The translations under genes and the position numbers were made by a program. From Halorutilales archaeon Cl-col2-1 (GTDB lineage Archaea > Halobacteriota > Halobacteria > Halobacteriales > Afararchaeaceae), in contig CP169075.1 of the NCBI GenBank assembly GCA_041891055.1, positions 32,001 through 96,000 on the forward strand: a DNA stretch of 64,000 bases, given 5' to 3'. A model generated the notes under the pieces. That model saw only the letters and a program-made list of their open reading frames with translations, had not been told where the DNA came from and did no database searches. Positions 832 to 64,000 of this stretch are shown in pieces (within the stretch, counting starts at the first letter, position 1; each line of letters opens with the position of its first letter).

Positions 832-1182
832 ATGAAAGAAGGCACACCGTACTCTAACACGAAAAGCGACGTTCACGCCACCACCTGGCTGAAACCGGGA
901 CAGGTCGAACAAATGCGGGACGTCTGCCTCACCGAGGCGTTCCCGACGTACCTTCAGGATAGAAACGAGGCGATAGTCGCACTCCTATACGACTTAGGGC
1001 TTCGGGCGAGCGAACTATGCGGTCTTGACGTCGACTACGTCGACTTAGAGGCCGGGACGGTCTTTCTCCCGAGCCGTATCCAGAAGGGCGAGCCGATACC
1101 GGCGACACTCGAGCTCGGTAAGTGGGGCGCCGACGCCGACGAGACATACACCTCTGAAAAGGTGATAGAACTCGGGAGGTGA
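832..1182 (+). pseudogene. Tyrosine recombinase/integrase (haloarchaeal XerC/D-like), internally deleted
   Basis: RNEAIVALLYDLGLRASEL (catalytic Arg box) and LPSRIQKG (Lys) are present. The ORF is only 116 aa and lacks the HxxR box and the catalytic Tyr region. Confidence 0.85.
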
Positions 1183-4392: not shown

Positions 4393-5821
4393 TTGACATC
4401 CTCCTCCGCCTGAAGGCGGAGGAATCCCACATTGGGATATTAGGGTTTGCAGTCTACCCGTTCTTGTGGCATGATTCCAGCCGTAGTATCGAACAGATAG
4501 ACTCCGGGCTGTGCCAAACAGCCGTTACTCATATCCTCCGAAGGAGGACTCTGAGTTATCTTACGTCGAATGTTAATCGCACCGTTCACGTCTGCGTTCA
4601 TCACCGTATCGCACGAACTACAGACGTATAGACCACGCTCTACACGGTTGCTGTCGTCTATCTTACCACAACAACAACAGGTCTTTGACGTGTTCTCCTC
4701 GTCCACACGCTCCACGAGAATGCCGTACTCCTCGGCTTTGTACTCAAGCAGACGGGTGAAACGGTCAAACTCCCAACCGTGCAACTTTTTGTTACCCGAC
4801 TTACCCCAACTACGACTCTCTCCGTCTTCGTCCTCTCGTATATCGCTCAAGTCACCTACCGCGATAGTCCCAACATCCTTCTCCACACACCGTTCAACGA
4901 TGTGGCGAGACAAAGTATGCAGGAAATGGTCTTTCCGCCGGGAGAGCTTACGACGTGCGCGTAATGCTTTCTCAGAAGGTCCGTCTTCGCCTTCCGTCTG
5001 GTATTCTTCCTGTGTGAAGTAGTGTTTGTCCTGCTTGAGTCGGTTTCCGGGATAGAGTTCAGGATCACCATCTTCATACGCTATAGCGACGTAGTTTTTC
5101 ATACCGAGGTCGATACCCGCTACGTCGTCACCGGGTGCATCCTCAACAGGTATCTCCTTCCTGCAGACGATGTGTACTTCCCATCTGTCTCCATTCCACA
5201 CCGCTCGTACTTGCTGTACATTCTCCACTTCTACGTCTGGACGAGTCTCGTACTCTACGAGGATGTAGTCATCACGATTCTCTTTTAGGTTCCAGCCTTT
5301 CGACAGCCGTAGCCTGTTGTACTCATCGTCGTGCTTGATACCGCGTTTCTTCCATGTAACGGTAGAGCGTGGGTGGTCGTCTCCACGTTTTCTGTAACCC
5401 GGCGGATTATTACTGTCGTCGGAGTTGTACCAGCCGTTGAACGCCTCAGAAAGCTCTTCAAGAACTCTCTGACTGGACTGACTGTGTAAGTCCTTGTAGC
5501 GTTCGTGGTCTTTCAACTCCGACTTGAGTTCGCTTTCGTCGGGTATCTCACCGTCTTCGTCCCACCGTTGTTGAACGTAGCTACGACCAACGTTCCAGAG
5601 TCGAGAAGCTGAGTGCCCGCACTTGTCAAGGTCGTCTTCGACCTGATTATGGTTGGTTATCTTACCAACGTAGGTGCGGGTCGTCTCCAACACATAATTA
5701 GTTATGTACCGTTCTATATTAAAGGCAACGAATATCCAAACCAGTCTATGTTCATGGTTAGCTGAGTAGTTCGACGGATTCATCCTGACCCTAAAGGGTC
5801 AGGTATTCTCCTCCGTTACGT
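4393..5821 (-). mobile_element. IS200/IS605 family element, tnpB only (IS1341-type)
   Basis: Subterminal hairpins CCTCCGCCtgaaGGCGGAGG and CCTGACCCtaaaGGGTCAGG; inserted 3' of TTAT on the minus strand, ends TCAA, no target duplication. Confidence 0.9.
4440..5693 (-). CDS. tnpB: RNA-guided endonuclease TnpB
   Basis: GIDLG (RuvC I), TSKTCCCCG...CSSC zinc finger, NADVNGAINI (RuvC III); probable GTG start at 5693. Confidence 0.93.
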   Translation of the reverse strand: MLETTRTYVGKITNHNQVEDDLDKCGHSASRLWNVGRSYVQQRWDEDGEIPDESELKSELKDHERYKDLHSQSSQRVLEELSEAFNGWYNSDDSNNPPGYRKRGDDHPRSTVTWKKRGIKHDDEYNRLRLSKGWNLKENRDDYILVEYETRPDVEVENVQQVRAVWNGDRWEVHIVCRKEIPVEDAPGDDVAGIDLGMKNYVAIAYEDGDPELYPGNRLKQDKHYFTQEEYQTEGEDGPSEKALRARRKLSRRKDHFLHTLSRHIVERCVEKDVGTIAVGDLSDIREDEDGESRSWGKSGNKKLHGWEFDRFTRLLEYKAEEYGILVERVDEENTSKTCCCCGKIDDSNRVERGLYVCSSCDTVMNADVNGAINIRRKITQSPPSEDMSNGCLAQPGVYLFDTTAGIMPQERVDCKP

Positions 5822-6959: not shown

Positions 6960-7132
6960 TGATAGTCTGTAACGAAAGGCAGGTATATGGGAGTTCTTCT
7001 TCATACGGTTGAGCGAGAAAGGTGGATCGGGCTAGGAGACAAGGGGACGGCGGGCAGCACCGTTTTCGACGGTGCAGATGGTCGTTGTACTGCGTTTTAC
7101 TAAGCATTTCTGTTCTGGTGGCTTGGGATAAG

Positions 7133-7252
7133 AGCTAACCAACATTTTCTAAATATTGTCTAGAGATGTTGGTTAGCTAGGGAGAGAAATACAATCCAAA
7201 GCGGGTGTGGTAGTCGTTGGTGTTAAGCTGGGTCAGGTGACTCAGGTTAACA
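7133..7252 (+). repeat. Composite B-linker-A repeat, copy 1
   Basis: Site B at 7133-7178; site A TGTTAAGCTGGGTCAGGTGACTCAGGTTAACA at 7221-7252. Confidence 0.95.
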
Positions 7253-7398
7253 ATACTAGTTAGAAGTTCTAACTTTACCTCACTATCCCTCGATTATAGA
7301 ATAGTTTCTAACGACCATCTGTCACTAGTTGGGTCGATTCTATCTGGCTCCGCACCTCTTTCGGTTAGGATGCCTGCGTGGTAAAGCATCGCTTTGAG

Positions 7399-11852: not shown

Positions 11853-12429
11853 TAAAAAGAATACAGGGTAGTATAAAGAAGAAGGCAAAAGATAGTAGTA
11901 TAGACGATAATAGAGTAGATGGACATCATCCAGATGTAGATGTGATAGAGTAGGATGTTTCTCTAAGGGTGTTTCTATGGTGTTACGAGGGAGATATGTA
12001 TGTTAGGTAGTTTTTCGTCTCTATGGCGTTGTGAGAGGCTTTGTGAGAGTGTGAGTACGTGTGTGTCTGTAGTGGTAGTGTCTTCTACATTAGCCTTAGT
12101 GGTGTAGTCATAGTTGGTGTTGTTGACGGTGTCTCTTTTTACCGAAGCCCTCGGTCTTTCGGTCGGTCTGACTCGCTGCGCTCTGGTTTGCCCATAGGTT
12201 GTCCCAGTGCTTGCGTCGTCAGACACGAGCCGAAGAGCCCTCGCCCTTCGTGAGTCCACCGAGGGGTTGGTTTTTCGGCTACTTTACGTCAACACCGGAG
12301 ACACGAGGTTGGGTTTCTGGTTCTAGACGGTACTTTCGCGCTTCCACACAGGGTGTATAGTTGAGAGAGGTATATTGGAATTCTTCTTTGGAGGTGGTTG
12401 GGAGAAGGGCTAGACAACATTAGAGTGAG

Positions 12430-12546
12430 AGCTAACCAACATTTTCGGAGAATTGTCTAGAGATGTTGGTTAGCTAGGGGAGGATACACTCCAAAGCGGG
12501 TGTGGTGGTGTCGGTGTTAAGCTGGGTCAGGTGACTCAGGTTAACA
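12430..12546 (+). repeat. Composite B-linker-A repeat, copy 2
   Basis: Site B at 12430-12475; site A at 12515-12546. Confidence 0.95.
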
Positions 12547-17007: not shown

Positions 17008-17021
17008 GCAACTCAATCTCT

Positions 17022-25778: not shown

Positions 25779-25851
25779 GTTTGTTACTATTAACTTTGAG
25801 TGGTATAACTCTTTGCACCGGTGTTAATCAGTATTAACAGTCTTTAATAAT

Positions 25852-25970
25852 AGCTAACCAACATTTTCGAAATATTGTCTAGAGATGTTGGTTAGCTAGG
25901 GAGAGAAATACACTCCAAAGCGGGTGTGGTGGTGTCGGTGTTAAGCTGGGTCAGGTGACTCAGGTTAACA
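25852..25970 (+). repeat. Composite B-linker-A repeat, copy 3
   Basis: Site B at 25852-25897; site A at 25939-25970. Confidence 0.95.
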
Positions 25971-26725: not shown

Positions 26726-26740
26726 GTCTTTGATTTGCTG

Positions 26741-26860
26741 AACTAACCAACATTTTCGGAGAATTGTCTAGAGATGTTGGTTAGCTAGGGAGAAAAATAC
26801 ACTCCAAAGCAGGTGTGGTGGTCGTTGGTGTTAAGCTGGGTCAGGTGACTCAGGTTAACA
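26741..26860 (+). repeat. Composite B-linker-A repeat, copy 4
   Basis: Site B at 26743-26786; site A at 26829-26860. Confidence 0.95.
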
Positions 26861-39352: not shown

Positions 39353-39412
39353 ACTCTCCAGAGCGGGGGTGGATTGTTGGTGTTAAGCTGAGTCAGGTGA
39401 CTCAGGTTAACA
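39353..39412 (+). repeat. Partial repeat: linker plus site A, directly after the PCNA stop codon
   Basis: CTCCAGAGCGGGGGTGG...GG, then TGTTAAGCTGAGTCAGGTGACTCAGGTTAACA (39381-39412). Confidence 0.9.
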
Positions 39413-39429
39413 GTGATTTACAATCCAAG

Positions 39430-45294: not shown

Positions 45295-45391
45295 CTGATA
45301 TTGACGTATGCCTGCTCCACAACAATAAAGAGTGGGTACATTTTGATAAAGCAGCACAGAATTTTTGCGGTGCCGCTTGGAAGTGTGTTTC

Positions 45392-47320: not shown

Positions 47321-47321
47321 T

Positions 47322-50249
47322 TCAGAAGTCCTTGAGGCTACCCTGTACCTTCTCCTCGTCTTCCTCGATGAAGATATCGGCATCGAGGTCGAGATCGAGC
47401 AGTTCTCCAGTTTCGCCAGCTGCGATGTCTCTAGCTATCTCCCAATCGTCGTGGTCATGCGGCAAGACACGCAGGAGTGCCTCTAATGTAGCTTTGAATG
47501 CTGGATCGGAGCCGCAGTTTCTCTCATTCATCCAATTCCACGTTTCGGTTGCCCCTTGAACATCATAGATATGCATGGCTGCGTGAACCTTGTCGAGCGC
47601 AGTCCCGAATGAGAGGGCATCGGGGTCTACGGGTTTACGACCCGATCGATTATCCCGATCCTTGTTCACATCTTGGACCCGGTCTCCATGGGGACGAAGA
47701 AGTACATCTCCACTCTTCTTTCGCCACATTCGGTGGGTTTTCTTCAGCGAATCCAGATCCTCTCCAACTCCAATCGCGAGACGTCGGGCTTCATCGTAAG
47801 GGAATCGTTGCGCCTCGAAAACCAACCAGGACAGTATGTACCACTCAGATTTCGGATCAATCTCCCTCACTCCTTCATTGAGATGTTTGTCGATGAAGTA
47901 GTCTCTAACTGCCCCTCGAGCTTCGTCAAGAGCAATCTGAGGGTGTACTTCGTTTCCTTCATCGTCAACGACGGGATAATTTTCAGTAAATACCTCCAGA
48001 GTCGGCCCGAATGCGGCCAACATAATGTCTACCTTCGAGAATTCGACTTCATCCTGATACATCTCTTCGGCTTGGGAACGTGCAACTTCACGAGTGCGAT
48101 TCTTTACTTCTCCCCAGAGGGTAAACTCGTCTTCACGCTCGTCACGCTTCTCAGCTGAGAGCAATATAGTGCTCTCAGCCGAATTTTTCCCCCGCTGATG
48201 TAGACTCTCTGGTCGTTCCGTACTGATCGGATGCGTTGATTTCACCACAAATCCAGAATTGATCAGAGCCTTTGTCAGGGTATCCCAGGCCTCTGTCTTC
48301 TTGTGCGTGAACATGAGGGTAAAGACACCTTCGTCATCGAGCACCCGGGAGAGCTCTCCGAAGATCTCAGACATTTTACTCTCATAATCATTCTTGGCCA
48401 GCTCAGATTTCGATTTATCCCCCGCAATATCATCGAACTTAGAGGCGTTAGCCACAGCTTCCTCATTCTTCTCGGTGAGCTCTTGCTGGAAGAAGTCTGG
48501 ATATACGTCACCAAGATATCTACGGAGCCATACATAGAAGTAATCTGAAAGCTCTGCGTACATTACATTGTCATAATAGGGCGGGTCAAGAACGATTACT
48601 TCGACCTCACCGTCATCTAGCGGCAGATCCGCAGCGTCCTCCTGAAAAACCTCGATAGGAGCAGAAGCATGACCTGCAAGTTCTTTCAGCTCCTCATAGA
48701 CTTCCACCATCGAATCGAGGACCCAGTCATATCCTAGACCTTCCGCTGGAAGCCGACTTTCAGCAAACCTCCATTTGAACCCGAAGTCATGCTGACCGAA
48801 AGCGTGGCCGATCTTTCCTTCACTGTGGACCCAGGTACACATCCGCGAATTGTAGTCAACGGCTTTGTCAGCACCAAGAGCTAGGAAAGTCAGTATTACT
48901 TCGGCTTCTTTATCGCCGTAATCTGGTGCCGGTTCTTCATTTTCCAAAACTGAGGCAGAAGAATCACCGTCACGAATCGCCTTTTTCACTTCCTCAAATG
49001 CCTGCCAATACGTGTAGTGAGTAAGCAGCTGGCGTGGAGCAAACATATCCCGCCACATCTCCATCCCGTATCTCCGTGGTTCGCTGGTTTTAGCCCCAGA
49101 TTCGATTTTCTCCGTTAGGAAGGTCGCTAAGTCTGGGTCATTGTTTACTTTCTTATTGGCGCGGTTTACTGCCCTGAGGTCCTCCTCTGTGGCTGCCCGA
49201 TATCGCTTTCCTTCTCCTTTGTGAAGTGACTCATAGTGAACGGCCGTTAGCCGAAGCTCCATATCACCGTTATTGGCCTGTTCTTTCACCTCATCCCCAT
49301 CTACGGTAACATTACAAGTCGGACACTCTGCCTTTCCTCTCGTTACCGTTCCTGATGCAGGGTTGAATTCGGACTTTTTGACATCTTTCCCCACCTCCAC
49401 TACAGGGAGTTTTACTTCAGCTGAGCCTTCGACGGGTTGCGGCTGAAGCGCAGTCCCACTCGTCGACGAATCACGCTCAAGCCACCAATTCAAAGTCAGG
49501 GGTATCTCTGACCCACAGTCAGGACAGGTAATCTGATGCATCCATACATATTCCAGATCACGTTGTCCCTCAACATCTGGATAGTACTCCTTCAGCTGCT
49601 CACGGGCACGCTTGTTGATACGGTCCCCCCATTTTTGGATATCATCAGACAGATCACCATCGACCTGGGGTTGTTCAAGTACTGCTTTCAGAATAACAGA
49701 CGGAACCGGGTTAAGTTCGTTCGCAATCGTTGGAAGCTGATAACGACGACTTTCGAAGGGGATTGATCCCCCACCGGCAGTGGCGTCTAGAACAGTTGGG
49801 AGGTCTCCTCCCCATGTCTCCCGTACCTGTTCATGGAAATTACCCATCTCTTCTTCATCGGGGAGATTTTTGTAGGATTTGCGATATCCATAGTGATCGT
49901 AGACGCGACCGCTTCTTTGATCCAGAGTGTCCGATTTGTATCGAATATGCTCTGCGATGCTCATTCCGTCTTCGAGATTATTCGGATTCATCCCCATCCA
50001 CCGCAGGAGCGTATCATCATCTACGGTATCTGGCAAAACAGATGAGAGTACCCCCAAACGCGTTGCTGGAGTAGGTCTACGAGCAAACCAAACGTGAATG
50101 TAGTTCTGAGGTGGCTTATCAGAGAAATTCTTTTGTTCACGTTTTGTTTCGAGTCCTACTGATCTAATCGGTAGGTTGCTATGTACCTTCAGCGGCTTTC
50201 TCTCGCTTTTCTTGTTGTCCATCTCTGTGGTAGGGGATTCTTCACTCAT
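47322..50249 (-). CDS. DUF1156 amino-methyltransferase
   Basis: IHVWFARRP, DATAGGGSIPFE, CPDC/CPTC, DPPYYDNVMYAELSD. Confidence 0.92.
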   Translation of the reverse strand: MSEESPTTEMDNKKSERKPLKVHSNLPIRSVGLETKREQKNFSDKPPQNYIHVWFARRPTPATRLGVLSSVLPDTVDDDTLLRWMGMNPNNLEDGMSIAEHIRYKSDTLDQRSGRVYDHYGYRKSYKNLPDEEEMGNFHEQVRETWGGDLPTVLDATAGGGSIPFESRRYQLPTIANELNPVPSVILKAVLEQPQVDGDLSDDIQKWGDRINKRAREQLKEYYPDVEGQRDLEYVWMHQITCPDCGSEIPLTLNWWLERDSSTSGTALQPQPVEGSAEVKLPVVEVGKDVKKSEFNPASGTVTRGKAECPTCNVTVDGDEVKEQANNGDMELRLTAVHYESLHKGEGKRYRAATEEDLRAVNRANKKVNNDPDLATFLTEKIESGAKTSEPRRYGMEMWRDMFAPRQLLTHYTYWQAFEEVKKAIRDGDSSASVLENEEPAPDYGDKEAEVILTFLALGADKAVDYNSRMCTWVHSEGKIGHAFGQHDFGFKWRFAESRLPAEGLGYDWVLDSMVEVYEELKELAGHASAPIEVFQEDAADLPLDDGEVEVIVLDPPYYDNVMYAELSDYFYVWLRRYLGDVYPDFFQQELTEKNEEAVANASKFDDIAGDKSKSELAKNDYESKMSEIFGELSRVLDDEGVFTLMFTHKKTEAWDTLTKALINSGFVVKSTHPISTERPESLHQRGKNSAESTILLSAEKRDEREDEFTLWGEVKNRTREVARSQAEEMYQDEVEFSKVDIMLAAFGPTLEVFTENYPVVDDEGNEVHPQIALDEARGAVRDYFIDKHLNEGVREIDPKSEWYILSWLVFEAQRFPYDEARRLAIGVGEDLDSLKKTHRMWRKKSGDVLLRPHGDRVQDVNKDRDNRSGRKPVDPDALSFGTALDKVHAAMHIYDVQGATETWNWMNERNCGSDPAFKATLEALLRVLPHDHDDWEIARDIAAGETGELLDLDLDADIFIEEDEEKVQGSLKDF

Positions 50250-50251
50250 GT

Positions 50252-50854
50252 TTACGAAATATGGTTGGTCAATAATACTCGGAGTGACTTCTCTCCACTT
50301 GGGCTATTCGGCGAACGACATTTAGCGTGCCAATAATAGCACTCTTCTAAACTCATCTGTGCAACGCCACGGGTGAGTGCTCGCATCCGATCGACTCGCT
50401 GTAACGGTTTGATCCCGATGAACCCGAGCGAGAGCCGAACTCCTGGCTCTTCGGGAATGAGGACGGTTGCTGAACCGGTCCCGGTAATCAGTGACGGATC
50501 AATATCCGTGTCTCTGAGAGCTTCATCGAAGAGCTGGAGGAGACACCGAAGGCGGGAACCGGAGAGTCGCCGTACCTTCATAGCGACCCAGTCGTCCCAC
50601 GTCCAGTCCTCTGCTCCCTCTACGTTTTCCCCAATCACTTCGTGAAACGGATGAGTTTTCGACGACTGTTGCCGGCGCCGTTCCAGCCGACGCTGGCGTG
50701 CGTCAGCCTGCTCAGTCGGAAGGAATTCGTAGAGCGTGATCGTCGCTTCGTTCCCTGTCTCGTCGCGAACGAGGGCGAACGTGGGACGTCCACCGTAGAC
50801 GCTGCTTCCAAGGGCGAAGGTCTCTGCCCGTTCCTCGTCTCGTTGGATGCTCAT
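50252..50854 (-). CDS. Accessory subunit of the DUF499 system (DUF3780-like position)
   Basis: MSLEECYYWHAKC motif; lies between and is translationally coupled to the DUF499 and DUF1156 genes. Confidence 0.7.
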   Translation of the reverse strand: MSIQRDEERAETFALGSSVYGGRPTFALVRDETGNEATITLYEFLPTEQADARQRRLERRRQQSSKTHPFHEVIGENVEGAEDWTWDDWVAMKVRRLSGSRLRCLLQLFDEALRDTDIDPSLITGTGSATVLIPEEPGVRLSLGFIGIKPLQRVDRMRALTRGVAQMSLEECYYWHAKCRSPNSPSGEKSLRVLLTNHIS

Positions 50855-53800
50855 GAGTCGTCACCTTCGATGTTCGTCGGTCCGCCGGCCTGCGCTCTGA
50901 CTGTGATGTTTGTCCCGTCGAGTTCGTCACCGAGCTGGGCGAGTACGTCGTCTTCGTCGCTGTCGATGGTCTCCGGTTCGTCCATTTGGAACTTAAAGCT
51001 CAGCTTGACCTTCTGATTACCACCTGCCCGGTCGCTAAAGCCTTCGGGACTCTGATTCAGCGTCGTGAAGGCATCGAGCGGCCCGGTGAAATTAGCGTTG
51101 AAGGTTGCCTCGCCGTTGCCCATCTCCGCCCGGCTCTTGTAGTCGAGATCCACAGTGATGGACTCACTCCGGGACTTCACGGGCGACCGTTGCGCGACGA
51201 AGGACCCGTGCTTGAACGGCTGATCGCCTTCGATCTGGACGATGAGTGAGTCGATTCCCGGCGTCGCATCACTACCGGCTTGGGAGACGGCGTGCCCCCG
51301 GATTTCGCTGAAAGCCCGCTTCGCGCTCATCGACCCGGTGGATTTGTTCCACGTCCCACCGGGACCCGTTTTGCAGTCCTCGCAGAGGACGGGCTCGTCG
51401 GCTTTCGTCTTGCCTTCGACCTCTTCTCCACAGTCGTCACACTCGGCGGGTTTGTTCCGACATTCCTCACAGAGCTTGTGGGTGCTCTGGGGTGGGAGGT
51501 CCTTACCGCAGTTCGCACATTCCGTCAGCTCTGGCGGACGAATCTCGTCGGCGTGCTGATCGAGGAGGTCCTCGATACTACCGAAGAGTTCGTACTCGTC
51601 GCCGATCTTGACCTGCGAATCCGTAATCGAGGTCGTGACGTCCGGCGACTCCGGGAGCGGCGCGTCGTGTTGCCAATTGTCTGGCTGGGACTGGGCGTTC
51701 CAGTAGGCCGTCGCCGTCTCGCTATCCCAGTAGGCGTACTCGTGGTCTGAGACCATTCGGGCGATGGTCTTTCGCAGCGGTTTCGTACTTAAGAGGAAGG
51801 GCAGCCCCGGCTTCCGGGCGAACTGTGCTTCCAGGTCCGCTGTCGTCATCCGGCGCTTCTGGCTCTGCCACAGCTTCTGCTCGAACCAGACCTTTCCTTT
51901 GGGTTGGTCGTCGTCCCGGATGATCCGGTTCATGTCCTCGAGCGTGGTTCGGACCGCGTCGACGAGCTTTGTCCCGCCACCGGCGTCGACGGACGTGATG
52001 GTCACGTGCGTTAGCCCGTCGTCCTCGACATAGAACAGGTGTCGATAGACGTTCCGAACGCTCTCACCGAGGAGCCCGCGTGCTTCGTCCTCCCTGTCCC
52101 GTAGTTCTTGAAGCTGTTCGTCGGAGAGGTCTGCAGTCTGCTGAGAGTCGTCTCGGAGGTCCTCGATAGCTTCGAGCCGCGTCGCCTGGTTGACCGCATT
52201 CTCGAGAAGTTCCGCATCCGGGGCGAGGAACAAGACGTAGTTCTTGTGCGAACGACTCTGGATGGTTCCTCCGTGTTTTGCGGCGGTTTTCTCGTACAAC
52301 TCCTGGATTTTGTCGGGGACCTCGGTTTCCTGACCACGCTCCGTTTGTACTGGCGCGGTGAGCATGTGCATAATCGAGAGCGTAGGTGTGGAGCCGTCAT
52401 CTGCCACGTCCGCTGGCTCCTCGGGGAACATCTCGACGTTGAATCCCCCACTCCCGACCTCGCGATCCAGTCGAGCTTCGAACCGGCTTCGAGCCTGCTC
52501 TTCGGAGGTGTTCTGGATCCGCTGGTCGATGATTCGAATCAGGTTTGGCTCGGCTTTGAACCGGATCTGATCCTCATCGTAGAGGTAGTAGCAGGCGACG
52601 TTCATGTCGTCGCCGCCGAGGTTCTTCAGCGCGTTATCGTAGTGGTCGAAGGAGACGCCAGGATGGGCGACAGCCTCGTTGAGCCCTCGTCGAGCGATTC
52701 CTGACGCCTGCTCACCGAACGCGAGACTATTCCAGAGCACCGTCGTCGTGATGTGGGATCCGAGCGCGGGGATGCCCTTCTCCGTCCACTTCTGGTCCTC
52801 GAGTTGGGCGTGTGCGGTCCCGTCACGAGTGTAGATGTCCGCAGTCACCGCCGCACTCAGATTGACGAACTCGAACAGGGATTCGTTGAGTGTTGCTCGA
52901 ATACTCCCGTCCGGAGCATCGTCTGCCGGCGTGAGATCGTAGAGACGGAGGAAGTGACGGTCATACTCCTCGGGCTGGTGATTCCACAGGTAGTGAATCG
53001 CTCGACCGAGCAGTTTCAGTGCTCCACGAGTCCGCTGGAAGTCCGGGATCGTGTCGATCTTCTCGGTTAGCGTTTCGAGAACAGTGGGGTGGAATGGGTA
53101 TTCCCGTTCGAGTTTCGAGCGGTAACTGTCCTCGCTAACCTCCTGCGGGAACTGACGGGGGGCTTCGTCGTAGAAGTGGAAGTACTGCTCGGCCACCGTA
53201 GCCGCCACATCTGTATCGATTTCGTCGAACAGTCGATGCTGGAGAACAGCCCCGACTTCCGTCTCGCCGGTCGGAGTGATAACCTTCTGTTGGCGTTGGA
53301 CGACAGCGTCCAGTTCATCGACCAGGCCACGAACCTCTTCGGCCTCCTCCTTGAACGCCGAGTCCGCGATACTGTAAATGACGGTGAGTGAGTCAGCTTG
53401 GGCGGCTGTCTCCAGTAGCGACTTCATGAAGGAGACGGTCTGGCTGGCTAGGGTAGCCCCACCGACCTCGAGCGTCGACGCGTCCTCGAGATACTCCGCG
53501 ATCTCGTCAATAAGGACCACGGAGGGCTGGTCACTCTGTTCCAGGAGATCCTTCAGCGTGTTCTGACCAGGGGCCTGCCTATCCCGGTCGTAGTCCTCGA
53601 TCTCCCGATAGCCGTCCAGCCCGAACAGCTGGTAGGCAATCTCGCCCCACATCGTGTTCGTATCTGGGGCGTCCGGGTCAGTCCGACTACTTCGGGCGCT
53701 GCGGGCGTCGACGTGCCCGCCGACGAAGACAGCTGAATTCGCTTCGAGCCCATCGGAAACAGCGTCCAGATACTCGGTCGCCAGCTCGTCCTTCTCGACG

Positions 53801-54174
53801 AACTTTGAGAGATTTCCAATCTCGGTCGGGTTGTTTGCGAGATGATACGAGGCTATGAGGTCGTGAGTTTTCCCGCCGCCAAAGGTCGTATCGAGACAGA
53901 GAATACTGCTCTTGTAGCCGTGCGTCTCCCGGTCTGCGGCAGCCAGGAACCGACCAGATAGGTTGCTCAACAGTGTGGTCAACCCCTCTGTCGGATATGT
54001 GGTATCGAAAAATTCCGCAGCGTCACGATACACAGGGGCGGCTTCATCGGGCTCGTGGGCGACGGTCGCGAGGTTAGCAGCGAATTGCTCCTCCTCCAAC
54101 GTCCCGTCGATAACGTCGGAGCGAGGCTGGCAGGCCTCGAAGAGCGAAGTCACCTCCTCCTTTTGTGTACTCAT
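50851..54174 (-). CDS. DUF499 AAA+ ATPase
   Basis: FFDTTYPT, TFGGGKTH, LIDEIAEY, YPFHP, FQRTRGAL; zinc-ribbon insert near the C-terminus. Confidence 0.92.
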   Translation of the reverse strand: MSTQKEEVTSLFEACQPRSDVIDGTLEEEQFAANLATVAHEPDEAAPVYRDAAEFFDTTYPTEGLTTLLSNLSGRFLAAADRETHGYKSSILCLDTTFGGGKTHDLIASYHLANNPTEIGNLSKFVEKDELATEYLDAVSDGLEANSAVFVGGHVDARSARSSRTDPDAPDTNTMWGEIAYQLFGLDGYREIEDYDRDRQAPGQNTLKDLLEQSDQPSVVLIDEIAEYLEDASTLEVGGATLASQTVSFMKSLLETAAQADSLTVIYSIADSAFKEEAEEVRGLVDELDAVVQRQQKVITPTGETEVGAVLQHRLFDEIDTDVAATVAEQYFHFYDEAPRQFPQEVSEDSYRSKLEREYPFHPTVLETLTEKIDTIPDFQRTRGALKLLGRAIHYLWNHQPEEYDRHFLRLYDLTPADDAPDGSIRATLNESLFEFVNLSAAVTADIYTRDGTAHAQLEDQKWTEKGIPALGSHITTTVLWNSLAFGEQASGIARRGLNEAVAHPGVSFDHYDNALKNLGGDDMNVACYYLYDEDQIRFKAEPNLIRIIDQRIQNTSEEQARSRFEARLDREVGSGGFNVEMFPEEPADVADDGSTPTLSIMHMLTAPVQTERGQETEVPDKIQELYEKTAAKHGGTIQSRSHKNYVLFLAPDAELLENAVNQATRLEAIEDLRDDSQQTADLSDEQLQELRDREDEARGLLGESVRNVYRHLFYVEDDGLTHVTITSVDAGGGTKLVDAVRTTLEDMNRIIRDDDQPKGKVWFEQKLWQSQKRRMTTADLEAQFARKPGLPFLLSTKPLRKTIARMVSDHEYAYWDSETATAYWNAQSQPDNWQHDAPLPESPDVTTSITDSQVKIGDEYELFGSIEDLLDQHADEIRPPELTECANCGKDLPPQSTHKLCEECRNKPAECDDCGEEVEGKTKADEPVLCEDCKTGPGGTWNKSTGSMSAKRAFSEIRGHAVSQAGSDATPGIDSLIVQIEGDQPFKHGSFVAQRSPVKSRSESITVDLDYKSRAEMGNGEATFNANFTGPLDAFTTLNQSPEGFSDRAGGNQKVKLSFKFQMDEPETIDSDEDDVLAQLGDELDGTNITVRAQAGGPTNIEGDDS

Positions 54175-54277
54175 CGTATGACAAAACGTGATTTTCACAC
54201 TACTTAAAAGTTCGAACTGTGTTCCTCGATTCCGGTAGCAATCAATTACTGCCTGATCCCTCGATGAGCAAACCTCC

Positions 54278-54628
54278 TTATTTAAATTCAGATATGATTC
54301 TGTTCTGGGATTCTCTCCGCTGCCGCCCGATTTGGAGTATCTCGAACTGAGACAGGTCGATATCTTCATCCTCAGTGATCGAAGCGCGAACTGACTCGGG
54401 GAGGGATTCGACCTCGATTGCTGTCAATGGATGTTGGGTGAGGAAATAGCTGCTTGCGAGGCTCGTCGGTGATACAGCAACAACCTCCTCGCTCTTCACC
54501 TCCTGCAGTTTGAGTTCAGCATTTCTATACTGGTGTAATTCCGCGGATAGCGCCTTAACGGGAATGCGGTCGGAGATATCCCCGTGGTCAACATATCCGC
54601 CAGCGTCGTAGAAATGCCCAACACTCAT
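54278..54628 (-). CDS. Hypothetical protein
   Basis: 116-aa ORF upstream of the DUF499 operon on the same strand. Confidence 0.6.
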   Translation of the reverse strand: MSVGHFYDAGGYVDHGDISDRIPVKALSAELHQYRNAELKLQEVKSEEVVAVSPTSLASSYFLTQHPLTAIEVESLPESVRASITEDEDIDLSQFEILQIGRQRRESQNRIISEFK

Positions 54629-57669: not shown

Positions 57670-57862
57670 ATACCTATATCATTGGTTACTCAGTTAAAAC
57701 ATATGCAAATATACGTAGTATGCAAATATGCGTATGTTTAAGTGGCTAGAGATACAAGTCATTGTGTAAGAAGCACGATGCTCCGGACTACGGGATTTAG
57801 TTCTCGTAGAAGGAGGCGGGTGTAGGAGCACCCGCCGAGTGCTTCTCCAAGGTGAAGAAGCA

Positions 57863-58270
57863 ATGCAATCTACGAATACGACCCAGAAAGATGTATCGCT
57901 ATTAGAGCAACTGCTAGATGGACTACGCGTCGGCATAGGAGAGTCACATGACGAGTTTGTGGTCTGCGACAGATGCGGTACCTACCTACGTGAAGGCTCG
58001 GACGTAACCGCTTACGCTTACTCGCAAGACAAAGACGCCAGTTGGGACGTAAGAGGCGTCTACTGCAGTCACTGCTCTAAAACAGAGATATCCACAGAGA
58101 CGAAAGGCACAGAGGAAGCCGTCGTCCAGGCACATCTCGCCCTCCTCGAAGACGCAAAATACCAGACAGCGTCACTAGTACTCGCAGATCCCGAGGCACT
58201 CGATTACAGTCCAACTGAAGAAGGCACAGAACCCCAGACAGTCGCCGTCACAAAGAAGGAGGGTCACTAA
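57863..58270 (+). CDS. Zinc-finger (CxxC x2) protein
   Basis: CDRC...CSHC. Confidence 0.7.
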   Translation: MQSTNTTQKDVSLLEQLLDGLRVGIGESHDEFVVCDRCGTYLREGSDVTAYAYSQDKDASWDVRGVYCSHCSKTEISTETKGTEEAVVQAHLALLEDAKYQTASLVLADPEALDYSPTEEGTEPQTVAVTKKEGH

Positions 58271-58271
58271 G

Positions 58272-58448
58272 ATGCAAGAGAGCACAGACCTCCAGAGGAT
58301 CCACTGTAAACACTGCGGCGAGTCACCTCGTCTCCATAGAGACGCCGATGACAGAGACTGTCTTGTAGCAAGATGTGACTGTGACTCTCCGAGGAGACTA
58401 CAGATCTACGATGCCGGAGTGCCACCTAAGTCATGGAGGGTCGAGTAA
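58272..58448 (+). CDS. Small zinc-finger protein (58 aa, below the ORF-track cutoff)
   Basis: MQESTDLQRIHCKHCGE...RCDC...WRVE; stop overlaps the next ATG (TAATG). Confidence 0.65.
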   Translation: MQESTDLQRIHCKHCGESPRLHRDADDRDCLVARCDCDSPRRLQIYDAGVPPKSWRVE

Positions 58449-60010
58449 TGATCGATGTCGACGAGCTCGCCCTCGATAAGTACCAGGTCATGCCCGACCT
58501 CTCCAACGAAGAGTACGCCGCTCTAAAACGTGATATCAGAGAAAACGGAGTCAGAACCGACATCGATGTCGACGAAAACAATAACGTAATCGATGGGCAC
58601 CACAGAGTCCGAGCTTGCAGAGAGCTGAGCATAGAGAAGATCGAAGCCCGTGTCCATGTCGGACTATCCTCCAAAGAGAAACAAGATCTAGCGTGGCGTC
58701 TCAACATGCAGAGACGTCATCTCGAACAGGGACAGAAACGCGAGCTAGCGAAGGAGTATCTAATCGATAGCTGGGACGGCGAGACTACCGAGCGTGAGAT
58801 AGCTGATCTCCTCGGGATCGGAAAGAAGACGGTAAATAGAGCCAAAAAAGATCTCAGAGAAGCTGGTAAGCTGAGTCACCTGACTCAACTTACCACCAGC
58901 GAGAAAAAAGAGATCGTCAGAGAGTACATAGAAGATCATCCCGACGCATCAAACAGAGAAATAGCAGATAGCATCGACTGTGACGTCTCCCATGTAACTG
59001 TAGGTAGATGGCGTAAAGACAAAGATGACAGTGACTCAGACTGTGAAGACGTATCTGACTCTGACTCAAACTCGGACGAAGATGATAGTAACAGAGATGA
59101 TGAAGACAACCAGAACCAGAACACCGAGGACAGCGACGACGAAGACGAGAAATCCTCGCTAACTCTCCGTAATGCCACCGACAAAGAGCTAGAGAAGCTC
59201 CAGGAGATAAGGGAGAAAGCCGATGAAGGCAACGAGGTAGCGCAAAAACAACTAGAGAAACTACAGAGCAACAGCACCTCCATCCACACGGCTCATAAAC
59301 ACCTAGAGAAGCACGAAGCCGAAAAAGAAGTTGAGAAACAACGTCAGACCGACGGCGGAGCCCAGGAGTATCAACCCAAGATCACCCAGTCCCCCGCTCT
59401 GGAGTTCATACAGAAATACGAAGACAAGAGCGTCGACCTACTCCTAACGGATCCTCCCTATAGCACAGACGTCGAGGACATCGAGGAGTTCGCCGAAGAC
59501 TGGCTACCTGAAGCACTATCCAAAGTCAAAGATGACGGCTACGCCTATGTCTTCGTCGGTAGCTACACAGAAGAGATCCATGCCTACCTGTCTGTACTCA
59601 CGGACATAGACAGGTTCGAGAGTCAGATCTTGATCTGGACATACAAGAACACCCTCGGCAAAGTACCGAAGAATCGCTACTCACGCAACTACCAAGCAGT
59701 CCTCTACCTACGTGGATCCGAAACCCAAGAACTCAACGCCCCCAAGACCTCCGAGCAATGGGCAGTACAAGATATCAACGCACCTGACGGCAGGCACCAG
59801 CAAAAACACCACCGCTGGCAGAAGCCCGAAAAACTCATCGAACGCTTCGTGAGACACACAACCGAAGAAGGCGACCTAGTCGTCGATCCCTTCGCTGGCT
59901 CGGGCACTACTCTACTGACAGCCGCCGAACTTGCACGTGAAACGGAGGGGTGTGACAAAGACTCACAAGCCATAGAGACCGCCAGAGAGAGGGGGTGTGT
60001 CGTAGAATGA
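58448..60010 (+). CDS. ParB-like N-domain, two HTHs and an N6/N4 DNA methyltransferase (beta-type motif order)
   Basis: IDGHHRVRA; TEREIADLLGIGKKTVNR; SNREIAD..VSHVTVGRWR; TDPPY before QKP and DPFAGSGTT. Confidence 0.9.
   Translation: MIDVDELALDKYQVMPDLSNEEYAALKRDIRENGVRTDIDVDENNNVIDGHHRVRACRELSIEKIEARVHVGLSSKEKQDLAWRLNMQRRHLEQGQKRELAKEYLIDSWDGETTEREIADLLGIGKKTVNRAKKDLREAGKLSHLTQLTTSEKKEIVREYIEDHPDASNREIADSIDCDVSHVTVGRWRKDKDDSDSDCEDVSDSDSNSDEDDSNRDDEDNQNQNTEDSDDEDEKSSLTLRNATDKELEKLQEIREKADEGNEVAQKQLEKLQSNSTSIHTAHKHLEKHEAEKEVEKQRQTDGGAQEYQPKITQSPALEFIQKYEDKSVDLLLTDPPYSTDVEDIEEFAEDWLPEALSKVKDDGYAYVFVGSYTEEIHAYLSVLTDIDRFESQILIWTYKNTLGKVPKNRYSRNYQAVLYLRGSETQELNAPKTSEQWAVQDINAPDGRHQQKHHRWQKPEKLIERFVRHTTEEGDLVVDPFAGSGTTLLTAAELARETEGCDKDSQAIETARERGCVVE
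58864..58895 (-). repeat. Site A variant inside the ParB-MTase coding sequence
   Basis: TGGTAAGCTGAGTCA-CC-TGACTCAACTTACCA, 15-bp arms with 1 mismatch; encodes GKLSHLTQLT. Confidence 0.9.
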
Positions 60011-60570
60011 GCTTTAGCGATGACCTAAAAAGTAGTGCCAACGCATTTGAGAAGGTAGTCTATCCCGAAATCGAGGGAGAGATAGACGGCAACGAAATCA
60101 TCCCCGTAGAAAACGTCCACACAGAATCCGATGTCCAGAAGCTCCTTGATACGAGAGCAGGGATAGATGCTCTCGTTCGGGACGAAAAAGGCAGACTGTA
60201 TGGAGTCGCAAGCCGCGTGCAGTATGGTGCTGACTGGGGGTCGTTTACAGTCCGAGGTTTTCGCTCTTCGGGATCCAAGACGGAGTACCGTAAACGGATA
60301 GAGGAGATAGAAGGCGACAAACACGCCATATATCCCTACTACACCTGCCAAGCATACGTAAAAGAGGGGCGTCTACTCAACGCGGCTGTCTGTAAAACCC
60401 AAGATCTCATAGAGTACATCGATCAAGGAGATTATCAGCAGGACTACGACGTCAAAATCTGTAATAAAGACGGAGACAGCCTACAGACTCTCTTTGTCGT
60501 GTTTTGGGGAGACTTCGTCGAAGAGCACGATCTGTATGTACACGATGCGAGTAACCTGAATTCGCTGTAA
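60007..60570 (+). CDS. Hypothetical protein, possible PD-(D/E)XK-like fold
   Basis: LDTRAGIDALVR...GVASRVQ; ATGA overlap with the MTase gene. Confidence 0.65.
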   Translation: MSFSDDLKSSANAFEKVVYPEIEGEIDGNEIIPVENVHTESDVQKLLDTRAGIDALVRDEKGRLYGVASRVQYGADWGSFTVRGFRSSGSKTEYRKRIEEIEGDKHAIYPYYTCQAYVKEGRLLNAAVCKTQDLIEYIDQGDYQQDYDVKICNKDGDSLQTLFVVFWGDFVEEHDLYVHDASNLNSL

Positions 60571-60602
60571 AAAGTCAGGTTCAGCTGTTTTTTGATAATC
60601 CA

Positions 60603-61631
60603 ATGTCTAACAGACCAAAGATAAGCCTAAGTCTCTCCGAGCTAACACGCAGAGAGTTTCACACCGAGTTCTGGAGTCAGAACTTCGAGTTGCTCGGTCA
60701 AGCAGTCCAAAGAATAGTCAAAGAGAAAGAACTCACGACCTGGAGTCAACTGCCGTCGTACCTGTGGCGTAACGGCGTAACCGAGATGAATAGAGAGTAC
60801 GCCCTCGACATGGTAGCCTTCGAGTTCGAGAAAGAGACCTCGGTAGAGAGACTCAAAAACCTCACTCTTCTACTCGGTTCGGGTAAGAGGATCAGCCCCG
60901 TCGACGAAGAGCTATATGGCACATACAACACCACCAAAGACGACGTCTTCGCACCCTTCAAGATCCTCGATATAGCCGGCATACAGCCCGAAATCGAGAT
61001 AGATATACCCTCCAGAGCGGTGGGTGGGATCGATAGAAAGTTCTTCGACGAATTGGGCGAATACGTCGACTTAGAGATAGAGGTCAGCCTTGGAGATATA
61101 GACGAACCTAGACAACTACCGGAGTATGTTTGCCTGAAAGTCAAGACAGATCCATCGAAGAAGGACAAGTACGGATACTGGCATAAAAGACAAGACCTCC
61201 ACAAAGCCGTAGAGACTCCGGACAGAGCGCTGAGAGTACTCGAGGACATAGCCGATGATCTACAGACCAAGAGCAACGACTACGAGTACAACTATGAGCA
61301 ACTACAGAAACTAACCCACCTCGACAGGAGTACTCTGATAACCTATACGAGGCTCTTAGAGGCGAATAATCTGATAGATAGGTCTCGGGACGAAAGACGT
61401 GTAAAGATCTCTCTGACCGACGTAGGTGTAGCTTTCACGAGTCTAGTGATGAACATCGACGTAAAGAACAGAGAGTATCTCAGAATAGCTCTCAGAGCAT
61501 TCTCTGTAGATGTTTTTCTTACCTCGTCTTCGAAACTGGATACTCTAGAAAGAGAAGATTTTGACACGGATACCAGCAGAAGAAGACAGAGTAAGCCTCC
61601 TCCAAAGACAAAGAAAAGTAAGGTAATCTAG
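60603..61631 (+). CDS. Hypothetical protein with a C-terminal winged-helix domain
   Basis: YEQLQKLTHLDRSTLITYTRLLEANNLI...ISLTDVG. Confidence 0.65.
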   Translation: MSNRPKISLSLSELTRREFHTEFWSQNFELLGQAVQRIVKEKELTTWSQLPSYLWRNGVTEMNREYALDMVAFEFEKETSVERLKNLTLLLGSGKRISPVDEELYGTYNTTKDDVFAPFKILDIAGIQPEIEIDIPSRAVGGIDRKFFDELGEYVDLEIEVSLGDIDEPRQLPEYVCLKVKTDPSKKDKYGYWHKRQDLHKAVETPDRALRVLEDIADDLQTKSNDYEYNYEQLQKLTHLDRSTLITYTRLLEANNLIDRSRDERRVKISLTDVGVAFTSLVMNIDVKNREYLRIALRAFSVDVFLTSSSKLDTLEREDFDTDTSRRRQSKPPPKTKKSKVI

Positions 61632-62233: not shown

Positions 62234-63220
62234 ATGTCCAACTCAGAAGTGTTGGAGAGGTTGCAGGAAATGACTCCTCGAGAGTTCGAGCACTTCGTAG
62301 CCGATCTCTGGGAGCGTCGAGGTTGGGATACAGCTGAAGTTAGCGATAAAGGTGCTGACGCAGGTGTTGATGTCGTCGCTAGAAAAGACGGTGTCTTCGA
62401 AGAGAAGCAGGTTATACAAGCTAAGCGATATTCTCGGAAGAAGAATAACAAAGTGGAGGGGCCCGAGGTTCAGCAGTATGCTTCTCTCCCAGACCAGACA
62501 GGTGCAGATAGTGTCGTGATAGTTACTACAGGGAGATTTACAGATCCTGCTAAAGAACGTGCCAATGATCTTAATGTCAAGACAGTAGATGGAGACGATA
62601 TCCTCGAGATGATAGAGAAACACAACTCCGGGGATCTCGTCGAAGAATATGCTCCTACGATGGAAGAGATCAAGGCGTCCGAAAGTCCAACATCGGGATC
62701 GAGGTCGAGTCCAGCTACAGCGGGAGGTGATAGTAGCGACTCAGATTCCAATGTTGGAGGAGTAGTAGTACTACTGGTTATCTTGCTGGGTGCTGCCTTC
62801 GTCTTCGGAGGTGGGGGTGGGGGAGGAACTACAGGATCTCCATCTACGGACGGTGGCTCTCCGGTAGCGAGTGGATCTATGGACAGTTTAGATGTCACTG
62901 TTGAAAACGCTAAGTCCGTAGAAGGCTACGCTCTTGTGAAACTGAGTATCGAGAACACAGGTAGTAGTCCCCAGTCCTTTCCGAGTGGTACGAGCATGAA
63001 TTTGGTACACAACGGCTCGACTGAGTTCTCTACTACGTATGACAATATGAGTATAGGCGGGCGCGAGTACGTGAATTACCAGTCGTTGAGTGGATCTTTA
63101 GAGTCGGGGCAGTCTACCTCAGGATGGATGATCTATGACATCGGTGAAGAGGTCTCATGGGAGAATGCTAAGATAGAATACGATGGTGAGATGGGTAGCT
63201 TTGAGTTGAAAATGGGTTAG
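62234..63220 (+). CDS. Mrr-type restriction endonuclease domain, TM helix and DUF4352-like domain
   Basis: PREFEHFVADLW, DAGVDV, IQAKRY, TTGRFT; TM segment VVVLLVILLGAAFVF; LESGQSTSGWMIYD. Confidence 0.85.
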   Translation: MSNSEVLERLQEMTPREFEHFVADLWERRGWDTAEVSDKGADAGVDVVARKDGVFEEKQVIQAKRYSRKKNNKVEGPEVQQYASLPDQTGADSVVIVTTGRFTDPAKERANDLNVKTVDGDDILEMIEKHNSGDLVEEYAPTMEEIKASESPTSGSRSSPATAGGDSSDSDSNVGGVVVLLVILLGAAFVFGGGGGGGTTGSPSTDGGSPVASGSMDSLDVTVENAKSVEGYALVKLSIENTGSSPQSFPSGTSMNLVHNGSTEFSTTYDNMSIGGREYVNYQSLSGSLESGQSTSGWMIYDIGEEVSWENAKIEYDGEMGSFELKMG

Positions 63221-63226
63221 AGAAGA

Positions 63227-63276
63227 AGCTAACGAACGTTTGTTTCTAGAGAATTCACCGAAGATGTTGGTTAGCT
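63227..63276 (-). repeat. Degenerate site B
   Basis: AGCTAACGAAC...TCTAGAGAA...ATGTTGGTTAGCT, same orientation as 1203-1247. Confidence 0.75.
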
Positions 63277-63282
63277 CAAGAG

Positions 63283-64000
63283 TCAATCTAGTTCTAATTC
63301 AGCCCAATTCCAGAATTCCTCAGGTGTACTGTAAATCACCTCACCGTGACCTCCTGTGTCGTGTACTTCAGAATGGCAACTAGGACAAAGGGGAACAACA
63401 TTCTCCTCTTCAGCAGCCCCTTTGTCATCAACTGGCTGCACATGATGGATTTTACATTGTGAAAGACGGTTTCTGAATTCACCACATCCAACACATGCCC
63501 CATAATCATCTAATATTTCCTTCCGACGAACCATATCCACCTGTTCAACTCTCCGTTTCGCAGCATTATTTTGTAGTTTCACTTGACCTTCTTTTTCATC
63601 CCAAACAAATCTTCGAACATATACTTTATGTGCATCTGTTGCCTTCGCAATTCGGTAAACACCAGGGTCTCTTCCAAATACATGGATTAGAACGGCTATC
63701 TTTTCTTGCTTCTTGCCACTTGGACAGACATCATTTATTACTCTATCTAACAATGATAGAATCTCTTCATCAGATTCTTTTTTAATAAGTTCCTTTTGTA
63801 GAGATCCAATATCAAGGTCATCAGGGATCGAGTATTCAACTTTCTCTGGGTCTTTGGTTTCTCCATTTGCGATTCTTATTGCGAGTTTCTCACCCACTCC
63901 GTCAATCTGCGTTATTTCTTCGACATCTGCCCTCTCGAGTCTTTCAACCGATCTGAAAACATGCAAAAGATCTTCAGCTTTAGAGTGTCCACAACCCTCG
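63283..64000 (-). CDS. Helix-hairpin-helix plus HNH endonuclease (5' end outside the window)
   Basis: IDGVGEKLA (HhH); CVGC...IHHVQP...NVVPLCPSCH. Confidence 0.85.
   Translation of the reverse strand, partial: EGCGHSKAEDLLHVFRSVERLERADVEEITQIDGVGEKLAIRIANGETKDPEKVEYSIPDDLDIGSLQKELIKKESDEEILSLLDRVINDVCPSGKKQEKIAVLIHVFGRDPGVYRIAKATDAHKVYVRRFVWDEKEGQVKLQNNAAKRRVEQVDMVRRKEILDDYGACVGCGEFRNRLSQCKIHHVQPVDDKGAAEEENVVPLCPSCHSEVHDTGGHGEVIYSTPEEFWNWAELELD

Follow-up and report, generated by a model that had tools for sequence, protein, structure and literature searches.

The stretch of DNA analyzed here (64,000 nt, called the window below) covers positions 32001–96000 of contig C2 (CP169075.1) of Halorutilales archaeon Cl-col2-1. 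C2 is 116 kb long with 49.6% GC, in a genome of 2.06 Mb whose main contig has 55.4% GC. The proteins encoded in the window are acidic, and genes for NucS, PCNA, and a DUF2240 protein occur among them. On the + strand, at 58433..60010, lies a gene for a protein of 525 aa (open reading frame, or ORF, and its translation) that joins a ParB-like N-terminus to a DNA methyltransferase. Inside this gene, at 58865..58896, the coding sequence forms a palindrome of 32 bp with 15 arm pairs (palindrome A), and further copies of it are dispersed between genes of the same window. The palindrome is considered here as a candidate binding site of the protein that it helps to encode.

From the N- to the C-terminus, the protein is predicted (ORF, Pfam, PHROGs, AlphaFold2, and Foldseek) to hold a ParB-N domain of the CTPase fold, two helix–turn–helix (HTH) units, an acidic disordered linker, a coiled region, and a β-class N6A/N4C DNA methyltransferase. 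In a public protein collection, the protein begins at the second Met and has 520 aa. In PHROGs, the N-terminus matches a ParB-like partition protein (8.7e-11) and the C-terminus a DNA methyltransferase (1.7e-37). The Pfam matches are HTH_24 (1.3e-5) and HTH_23 (2.1e-5) at residues 115–145 and N6_N4_Mtase (PF01555, E 2.5e-28) at residues 334–518. The AlphaFold2 model (predicted local distance difference test, pLDDT, of 78) has, in order, a ParB-N-like α/β domain, HTH units at 120–143 and 174–200 (with helices 120–127/131–143 and 174–180/187–200), a disordered acidic segment at 201–244, a helical region, and the methyltransferase fold. With Foldseek, the N-terminal ~200 residues resemble ParB-CDP (6sdk, 5.5e-8), ParB-CTPγS (7bnr, 2.3e-7), and Noc (7nfu, 5e-7), and the C-terminus resembles CcrM (6pbd, 1.5e-14) and also M.BceJIV, MboIIA, RsrI, and PvuII; phmmer finds a match to H. 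pylori Spo0J (PDB 4umk, E 1.3e-3). Among 26 homologues, G55 and R58 of the phosphate motif GxxR are nearly invariant, and N91 and R95 of the ENxxR-like box III are invariant, as is the catalytic motif D340-P-P-Y343. With GxxR, the ENxxR-like box III, and an HTH directly after the N-domain, the protein has the marks of the ParB/Srx fold; with PF01555, DPPY, and a fold like that of CcrM, M.RsrI, or M.PvuII, it has those of a β-class N6-adenine/N4-cytosine methyltransferase.

The coding strand at 58865–58896 reads TGGTAAGCTGAGTCACCTGACTCAACTTACCA, with 14 of the 15 arm pairs paired around a CC center. It encodes, in frame, residues A144–T154 (AGKLSHLTQLT). In the AlphaFold2 model, these residues form a coil between helix 131–143 and helix 155–168, and the Pfam HTH matches stop at residue 145. 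A sequence-only reading of the window had placed the palindrome in frame in a ParB–HTH–methyltransferase gene, with the peptide GKLSHLTQLT between two HTH motifs. Both points hold, the first as a near-perfect dyad of 32 bp and the second as the coil 144–154 between the HTH units of the model. The same reading had aligned the minus strand of 58860–58900 with a copy near 39376; 32 of 37 positions are indeed identical with 39376–39412 (counted by eye), and the compensatory difference that it reported is real, with pair 14 being G–C in the gene and T–A in the dispersed copies. In the window, the 16-base core with at most two mismatches has eight strand matches at six sites (two of them matching on both strands) against 0.06 expected, and none of 100 shuffles reached eight. 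A chance origin of the palindrome matches is excluded.

Copies of the palindrome within the genus

Five copies of palindrome A lie between genes in the window, all in one orientation with GG on the + strand. Four of them, at 7221..7252 (GG center), 12515..12546, 25939..25970, and 26829..26860 (all +), form the right end of a unit of ~120–125 nt (7131–7252, 12428–12546, 25847–25970, and 26740–26860, respectively); the last one ends 10 nt before the stop codon of the minus-strand DUF2240 gene. The fifth, at 39381..39412 (+), belongs to a partial unit, 39353–39413, which has just the right ~60 nt and begins 2 nt past the PCNA stop codon. The left part of the unit, which goes beyond what the sequence-only reading had described, holds a second inverted repeat with 12-bp arms ~20 nt apart. 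The four full units are 90%–95% identical to one another and have unrelated flanks. The gene shares with them just the palindrome, not the remaining unit. Genome-wide, palindrome A occurs at 11 sites, seven on C2 and four on contig C1, both gene copies included. The repeat copy at C1:1326709 has one difference from the C2 gene copy over 39 bases (counted by eye), so that gene and repeats evidently exchange sequence. At C2:25016, outside the window, there is a rearranged half-site, with the left arm and the center kept and the right side altered into a shifted 9-bp inverted repeat.

The second inverted repeat is also dispersed on its own account: 31 pairs of 12-bp arms, ~19–21 nt apart, occur genome-wide, 20 of them on C2. 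In the window, they are found at 1204–1246, 2083–2127, 7134–7177, 12431–12474, 25853–25896, 26742–26785, and 63228–63275, and ~24 more are on C1, C2, and C3. They flank both orc1/cdc6 genes of C2 (~21.0–22.3 kb and 97.4–98.8 kb) and adjoin, outside the window, genes for tyrosine recombinases of ~200 aa (C2:27516–28109 and C3:7423–8022). They resemble punctuation marks at gene boundaries, or else the operators of a mobile replicon.

In form, the ~125-nt unit resembles the small elements derived from IS200/IS605 (miniature inverted-repeat or palindrome-associated transposable elements), with a palindrome at each end, no visible target duplication, and five window copies co-oriented. It differs from them in its position outside the adjacent TnpB element, which ends at ~7438–7440, ~180 nt from the unit; in the absence of any unit near the genome's single Y1 transposase gene (C1:979 kb); and in that the gene shares the palindrome only. 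The unit was rejected as a part of the neighboring TnpB element and, with no ends shared with that resident element, also as an IS200/IS605-derived miniature repeat. At the gathering threshold, Rfam has no family at any palindrome or unit. The sole Rfam match in the window is sot0042 (4402–4561, − strand, 88.4 bits vs. a gathering score of 88), which overlaps the 3′ end of a TnpB gene (4440..5783), the position expected for a TnpB guide RNA.

On C1, a paralogue of the gene (560727–562283) encodes a protein with 67% amino acid identity to that of C2 and has the palindrome at the matching codons (TGGTAAGCTCGGTCAGGTGACCGAACTTAACA). Seven of the 32 bases differ: four belong to two compensatory pairs, two form the center (CC in the C2 gene, GG in the C1 paralogue), and one breaks a pair. 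In the first compensatory pair, CTG is replaced by CTC (synonymous) and CAA by GAA (Q to E); in the second, AGT is replaced by GGT (S to G) and ACT by ACC (synonymous). The orthologue in a second genome of the genus (G001) keeps the dyad with different substitutions. Among the 13 distinct sequences of the palindrome family in the two genomes, double changes occur at pairs 6, 7, 10, 12, and 14 (five of the 15 arm pairs), and the center is invariably GG/CC. Judged from this pattern of substitution, the dyad symmetry is evidently kept by selection. The sequence-only reading had asked whether the variant in each genome's gene matches its repeats, and a match to dispersed copies is found in the two genomes of this genus. 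In 401 sampled genomes of the class, palindrome A is present in these two (2/401); the N-terminal 200 aa have matches in nine genomes, close in the same two and weak in the other seven.

The gene is part of a four-gene module at 57839..61631 (+), in which the ParB–methyltransferase gene is preceded by an ORF of 143 aa and followed by ORFs of 191 aa and 342 aa, the last one with a weak MarR-like HTH (tblastn against the genome and Pfam). With the neighbors as tblastn queries, the module recurs with unchanged gene order at C1:560.1–563.9 kb. The module copies on C1, outside the window, span 560136–564362 and 1037759–1039696; the latter, a third copy (C1:1037.7–1039.7 kb), has the first and last genes only, without the ParB–methyltransferase gene and the 191-aa ORF.

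Palindromes in genes of the family

Homologues are encoded at 160 loci from IMG/VR and metagenome contigs, and 159 genes were scanned systematically for palindromes with 12-nt arms, at least 11 of them paired, and a spacer of 0–4. The long-form set holds 72 distinct genes of at least 380 aa, which are related to one another and thus not independent. At a first look, five of eight loci with an N-terminal match had a strong palindrome in the coding sequence beside the HTH, all with different sequences. In the long-form set, at least one palindrome is present in 30 of the 72 genes, for a total of 32. The 49.9 kb upstream of the DPPY motif hold every one of the 32, and the 38.7 kb from DPPY onward hold none; 26 of them are 96–136 aa upstream of the motif. 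After shuffling of synonymous codons within genes (20 times), one to five palindromes per set are left against the 32 observed, so that the palindromes depend on codon choice. Their density is 0.31/kb in the genes versus 0.06/kb in the flanks.

Between lineages, the palindromes are unrelated in sequence, and the encoded peptides differ widely. In related groups, a non-synonymous change on one arm goes with a synonymous change on the other (for example, GAG...TCT vs. GCG...TCG between loci L138 and L123, by eye). One metagenomic homologue has two similar palindromes of 28 bp, 48 nt apart, in the linker-coding region (L169:4098–4173).

The palindrome is also found in named replicons. In the cultured Methanoculleus virus L4768, gp52 (405 aa, annotated as a "plasmid replication/partition related protein") has a perfect 20-base palindrome immediately before the HTH; extended, it has 12 arm pairs with 11 paired. 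In plasmid pAtCFBP5507b of Agrobacterium salinitolerans, the gene for a "ParB N-terminal domain-containing protein" (36% match to residues 1–160) has a 12/12 palindrome directly after HTH1. The peptides at the palindrome are alike in pAtCFBP5507b (TGEIPQLQ), the C2 gene (AGKLSHLTQ), and homologue L112 (AGAEISHL). Relative to this motif, the axis of the dyad is at 6.5 nt in pAtCFBP5507b and L112 but at 15 nt in the haloarchaeal genes, a shift of 8.5 nt. Because the axis is offset despite the similar peptide, the palindrome is not a by-product of the peptide. In HRTV-28 gp71, where a ParB-N domain, an acidic linker, and a methyltransferase occur without an HTH, there is no palindrome.

With at most three mismatches, the in-gene palindrome is single-copy in a 43.5-kb viral genome rated complete (L033), in a 16-kb viral fragment, in the 37-kb Methanoculleus virus, and in the 46-kb Agrobacterium plasmid, and no second copy is present in the flanks (up to 12 kb) of the homologue loci. 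Since there is a single copy in all four non-halophile records, the multiplication would be special to this haloarchaeal genus. By these comparisons, an in-gene palindrome is apparently a general trait of ParB–HTH–methyltransferase fusion genes in bacteria, archaea, phages, and plasmids, with a site sequence that seems to change fast and a dyad symmetry and position that are kept across the family. The sequence-only reading had proposed that the segment in homologues might be hypervariable yet palindromic; this is the case in the 30 of 72 long forms and in L4768 and pAtCFBP5507b.

Pfam matches were compared between 29 palindrome-bearing and 40 palindrome-less long forms (L155 and L090, each with an internal stop, and L108, with 2953 aa, being excluded). 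Counted per family and not per protein, the HTH-type hits in the palindrome-bearing proteins are four for HTH_23, three for HTH_38, two each for five families, and additional singles, against three single hits in the palindrome-less forms. ParB_N is matched in 7/29 and 16/40, respectively. The palindrome accompanies the presence of an HTH. In Mantel tests on 28 genes, half-site distance tracks distance in the flanking protein sequence, both over 40 aa downstream (r 0.53, p 5e-4) and over 35 aa upstream (r 0.48), but not in the methyltransferase domain (r 0.13, p 0.11). With the upstream stretch controlled for, the downstream one has a partial correlation of 0.32 (p 5e-4). Over loci L032–L191, the methyltransferase domains are evolutionarily uncoupled from the palindrome-bearing ParB–HTH modules (Mantel r 0.13 vs. 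0.45–0.53), which suggests that the two halves are shuffled.

A proposed site for the encoded protein and other readings

We consider it somewhat better than an even bet (roughly 55%) that the palindrome is the protein's own parS/bisS-like site, written in the codons of the linker and secondarily multiplied in this genus on a ~125-nt repeat with two palindromes. The dyad at 58865–58896 would be the cognate site of the ParB-type N-domain and the HTH units, acting as a docking site or an operator, and the linker beside the HTH would be tolerant enough to hold it in its codons. In the haloarchaeal genus, the site would have been copied to ~ten other places, mostly as the right end of the repeat, and the copies would give the protein several sites on the low-GC C2 and on C1 islands. 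Binding might then load a clamp that carries the methyltransferase along the DNA in cis, or the bound protein might be an autoregulatory roadblock within its gene. That the protein binds a parS-like or operator site in its own gene was one of the options of the sequence-only reading; the comparative evidence favors it, and from the same evidence we infer the binding and its consequence. Another option, that the repeat captured the segment from the gene, is plausible in that direction: the in-gene palindromes appear to be ancestral to the family, so that the gene is the most likely source of the site in the dispersed repeat, and one copy on C1 is nearly identical to the gene's.

The likeness to ParB/parS lies in the N-terminal ParB-CTPase fold followed by an HTH region and in a palindromic candidate site on the protein's own replicon, here in several copies. 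The differences are as follows. The C-terminal dimerization domain of ParB is replaced by a DNA methyltransferase; the arms are 12–15 bp versus 8 bp for the 16-bp parS; and the site is in frame in its own gene beside the HTH codons, across the fusion family, and single-copy in the phage and plasmid records. Intragenic sites have precedents. One parS of B. subtilis lies inside spo0J; a literature search for this case found nothing. The accessible part of a report on M. bovis BCG describes a putative parS inside parA (PMC2346475).

BisD of ICEclc is closer in several respects. In the accessible text of its description, BisD is a ParB-like CTP clamp that loads at palindromic bisS sites of 23 bp (11-bp arms) within inrR and ssb and slides ~50 kb (PMC12409273). 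As far as that text goes, BisD is likewise a ParB-like protein of a mobile element with an extra effector domain, and the form, size, and intragenic position of its sites match those seen here; it differs in that bisS lies in other genes and not in bisD, and in that the effector is a transcription-activation domain, with a methyltransferase here. A survey of ParB-CTPase folds states, in the part available, that fusions to N6_N4 methyltransferases are frequent in phages and prophages (PMC12704722). These fusions have the same domain architecture as the 525-aa protein; the survey gives no DNA site for them in that part, and "palindrom" has no hits in its main text. A different arrangement occurs in methyltransferases with an N-terminal HTH that act on their own gene. 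M.SsoII and M.EcoRII repress their own promoter through a palindromic operator; that operator is in the promoter and there is no ParB domain, whereas here the site is in the coding sequence.

Could the palindrome be bound by another factor, the linker tolerating the site? A terminase or packaging protein at a pac-like site, or a replicon regulator, would be such a factor. Several phages have their pac site within the small-terminase gene, and the single copy in all four non-halophile records is as for a pac/cos-type site. In the complete viral genome L033 (region 3486–8348), the gene is directly upstream of putative terminase, SPP1-type portal, and MuF genes. However, the palindrome occurs as well in a plasmid gene and in archaeal chromosomal and plasmid copies without packaging genes nearby, it is associated with, and co-varies with, an HTH of the encoded protein, and ~ten copies in one cellular genome do not fit a packaging site. 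We regard binding by another factor as unlikely.

The compensatory changes are also what a stem would show, and the palindrome could be a hairpin, either in the mRNA (for a pause or attenuation between the protein halves) or in DNA while the element is single-stranded. Several dispersed copies are no more than ~30 nt from a stop codon, a position at which a 3′ hairpin could work, and plasmid methyltransferases specific for single strands are known (PMC7736820, accessible part). On the GG strand of the haloarchaeal copies, G·T mismatches (10 cells, five of them from one lineage) exceed A·C mismatches (two), as a hairpin predicts. Across the family, the symmetry runs on toward the center. Among 21 palindromes with an even axis, six have a complementary central pair (chance level), 14 a complementary second pair (binomial p 7e-5 vs. 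25%, in a test that is biased somewhat, short-armed palindromes being detected only with matching inner pairs), and 20 a complementary third pair; in the 11 odd-axis palindromes, the pair that flanks the central base is complementary in six and the next pair in 11. Some palindromes are perfect through the center; a hairpin loop would require neither this nor the complementary pair beside a 2-nt center. The internal mismatches (three G·T, six A·C, and 12 other) show no sense-strand G·U excess, the strand with the wobble pair in the C2 gene is antisense to the mRNA, and the palindromes have no following T-run. Symmetry into the would-be loop and the lack of a wobble excess fit a duplex-DNA site that would be read by a dimer, and a hairpin is, in our estimate, distinctly unlikely.

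The sequence-only reading had also proposed that an integrase swaps the peptide or the halves of the gene at the palindrome, and had joined integrase, accessory factor, dispersed sites, and effector gene into one candidate system. Inverted arms around an asymmetric center are indeed the form of a recombinase core site, the center is flipped between the C2 and C1 paralogues, the uncoupling of the methyltransferase domains from the N-terminal modules would agree with a swap or inversion, and a gene for a tyrosine recombinase of ~204 aa (C1:1302294–1302908) ends ~50 nt before a copy of palindrome A. In the window, however, PF00589 matches one truncated frame of 116 aa (832..1182) and no intact integrase, and a near-identical integrase paralogue (C1:1685953) has no palindrome beside it. 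A serine recombinase site (14+2+14, hix/gix-like) was rejected, as PF00239 has no match in the genome. The single copy in the four other records leaves no partner site for recombination. The palindrome is moreover within the DNA-binding region, ~50 residues before the disordered linker where domains would swap, and not at the methyltransferase boundary. A possible link of the repeat unit to these tyrosine recombinases does not explain the palindromes in genes across the family. Neither the swap nor the single system is borne out, and a recombinase core site is a quite improbable reading.

Contigs from three salt-lake metagenome runs hold parts of the gene and break or diverge at the palindrome, as is expected from assembly alone at a repeat. 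In two of the runs (X1 and X2), contigs of 111 bases match 58786–58896 (the HTH1-coding part and the palindrome) and diverge straight after it, at 58896, into ~30 unrelated bases that are still an open frame. Such divergence, which recombination would also give, may reflect a strain variant, a hybrid gene, or an assembly artifact at the repeat. One contig of the third run (X3) is a copy of the dispersed repeat, with a loose end that reads as the unit in reverse complement.

A palindrome without a role of its own, left in the gene as a by-product of gene conversion or of a mobile miniature repeat, would suit the near-identical units with unrelated flanks and the C1 unit that bears the gene's variant almost exactly. 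This reading is very improbable. Compared with its closest homologues, the gene has no inserted sequence at the segment: the GKL...TSEK peptide can be aligned with P0003, P0004, P0006, and P0058, and the closest metagenomic homologues (P0005–P0010 and P0058) share GKL...SEK. The gene has nothing else of the unit, which is itself separate from the TnpB element, and a haloarchaeal repeat cannot be the source of the unrelated palindromes that distant genes have at this place.

The preferred reading, a site for the encoded protein, has several points against it. In this genome, the dispersed copies belong to a larger, nearly identical repeat, which speaks for recent mobility of the repeat rather than selection site by site, and the two genomes with palindrome A are of one genus, so that the co-occurrence of site and gene counts as one event. 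ParB_N is matched in the 525-aa protein below the Pfam cut-off (E 1.6e-3, 18.9 vs. 26.3 bits). In the long-form set, 42 of the 72 genes are without a palindrome at the rule used. The position relative to the HTH varies among homologues: the palindrome comes after HTH1 in the C2 gene, L037, L122, L140, and Agrobacterium, after HTH2 in L112, and before the HTH in most bacterial and phage forms. Co-variation with the DNA-binding module could reflect physical linkage alone, the palindrome being inside the N-terminal module. The arms of 12–15 bp are longer than parS half-sites. The bias of the second-pair test and the G·T mismatches of the haloarchaeal copies, both given above, count on the same side.

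Genomic setting and possible role

The window is a defense island, with defense genes at 14017–18392, 41365–54369, 45365–47320, and 62234–63966. They include an AAA_5/EVE McrBC-like pair, GmrSD, Mrr, and HNH nucleases, and a DISARM-like set (an SNF2 helicase with a weak PLD match, a DUF1156 methylase, DUF7680, and DUF499). An AddAB-like helicase–nuclease pair is at 19814–25313.

The family-wide in-gene palindrome is unreported as far as our literature searches reach. They returned no paper describing a palindrome inside ParB–methyltransferase genes, within a scope of main texts, and the supplements of PMC12704722 may bear on this. The accessible portions of PMC7736820, PMC13370423, and PMC13229309 make no mention of a palindrome of this kind.

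If the palindrome is the protein's own site, the spacing of the sites over C2:39–96 kb, an island of defense genes, would suit the loading in cis of a sliding methyltransferase. More tentatively, and at rather long odds, the ParB–HTH–methyltransferases may be site-loaded, nucleotide-gated sliding enzymes that mark only the DNA encoding them, with the mobile repeat having widened the coverage in this archaeon to a defense-rich island of foreign DNA of ~60 kb. A single gene would then be a complete transferable module, with site and reader inseparable by recombination and the loading site beside the codons of the helix that reads it. Loading followed by spreading would offer a way to methylate self DNA selectively and would explain why one gene holds both the reader and the site.

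The compensation of non-synonymous by synonymous changes between the two arms is a clear case of a constraint at the DNA level that shapes a protein linker. Fusions of a ParB fold to a methyltransferase are common in phages, plasmids, and archaeal elements, the accessible papers name no DNA target for them, and for each member of the family the in-gene palindrome provides a specific, testable candidate target that can be read directly from the gene.

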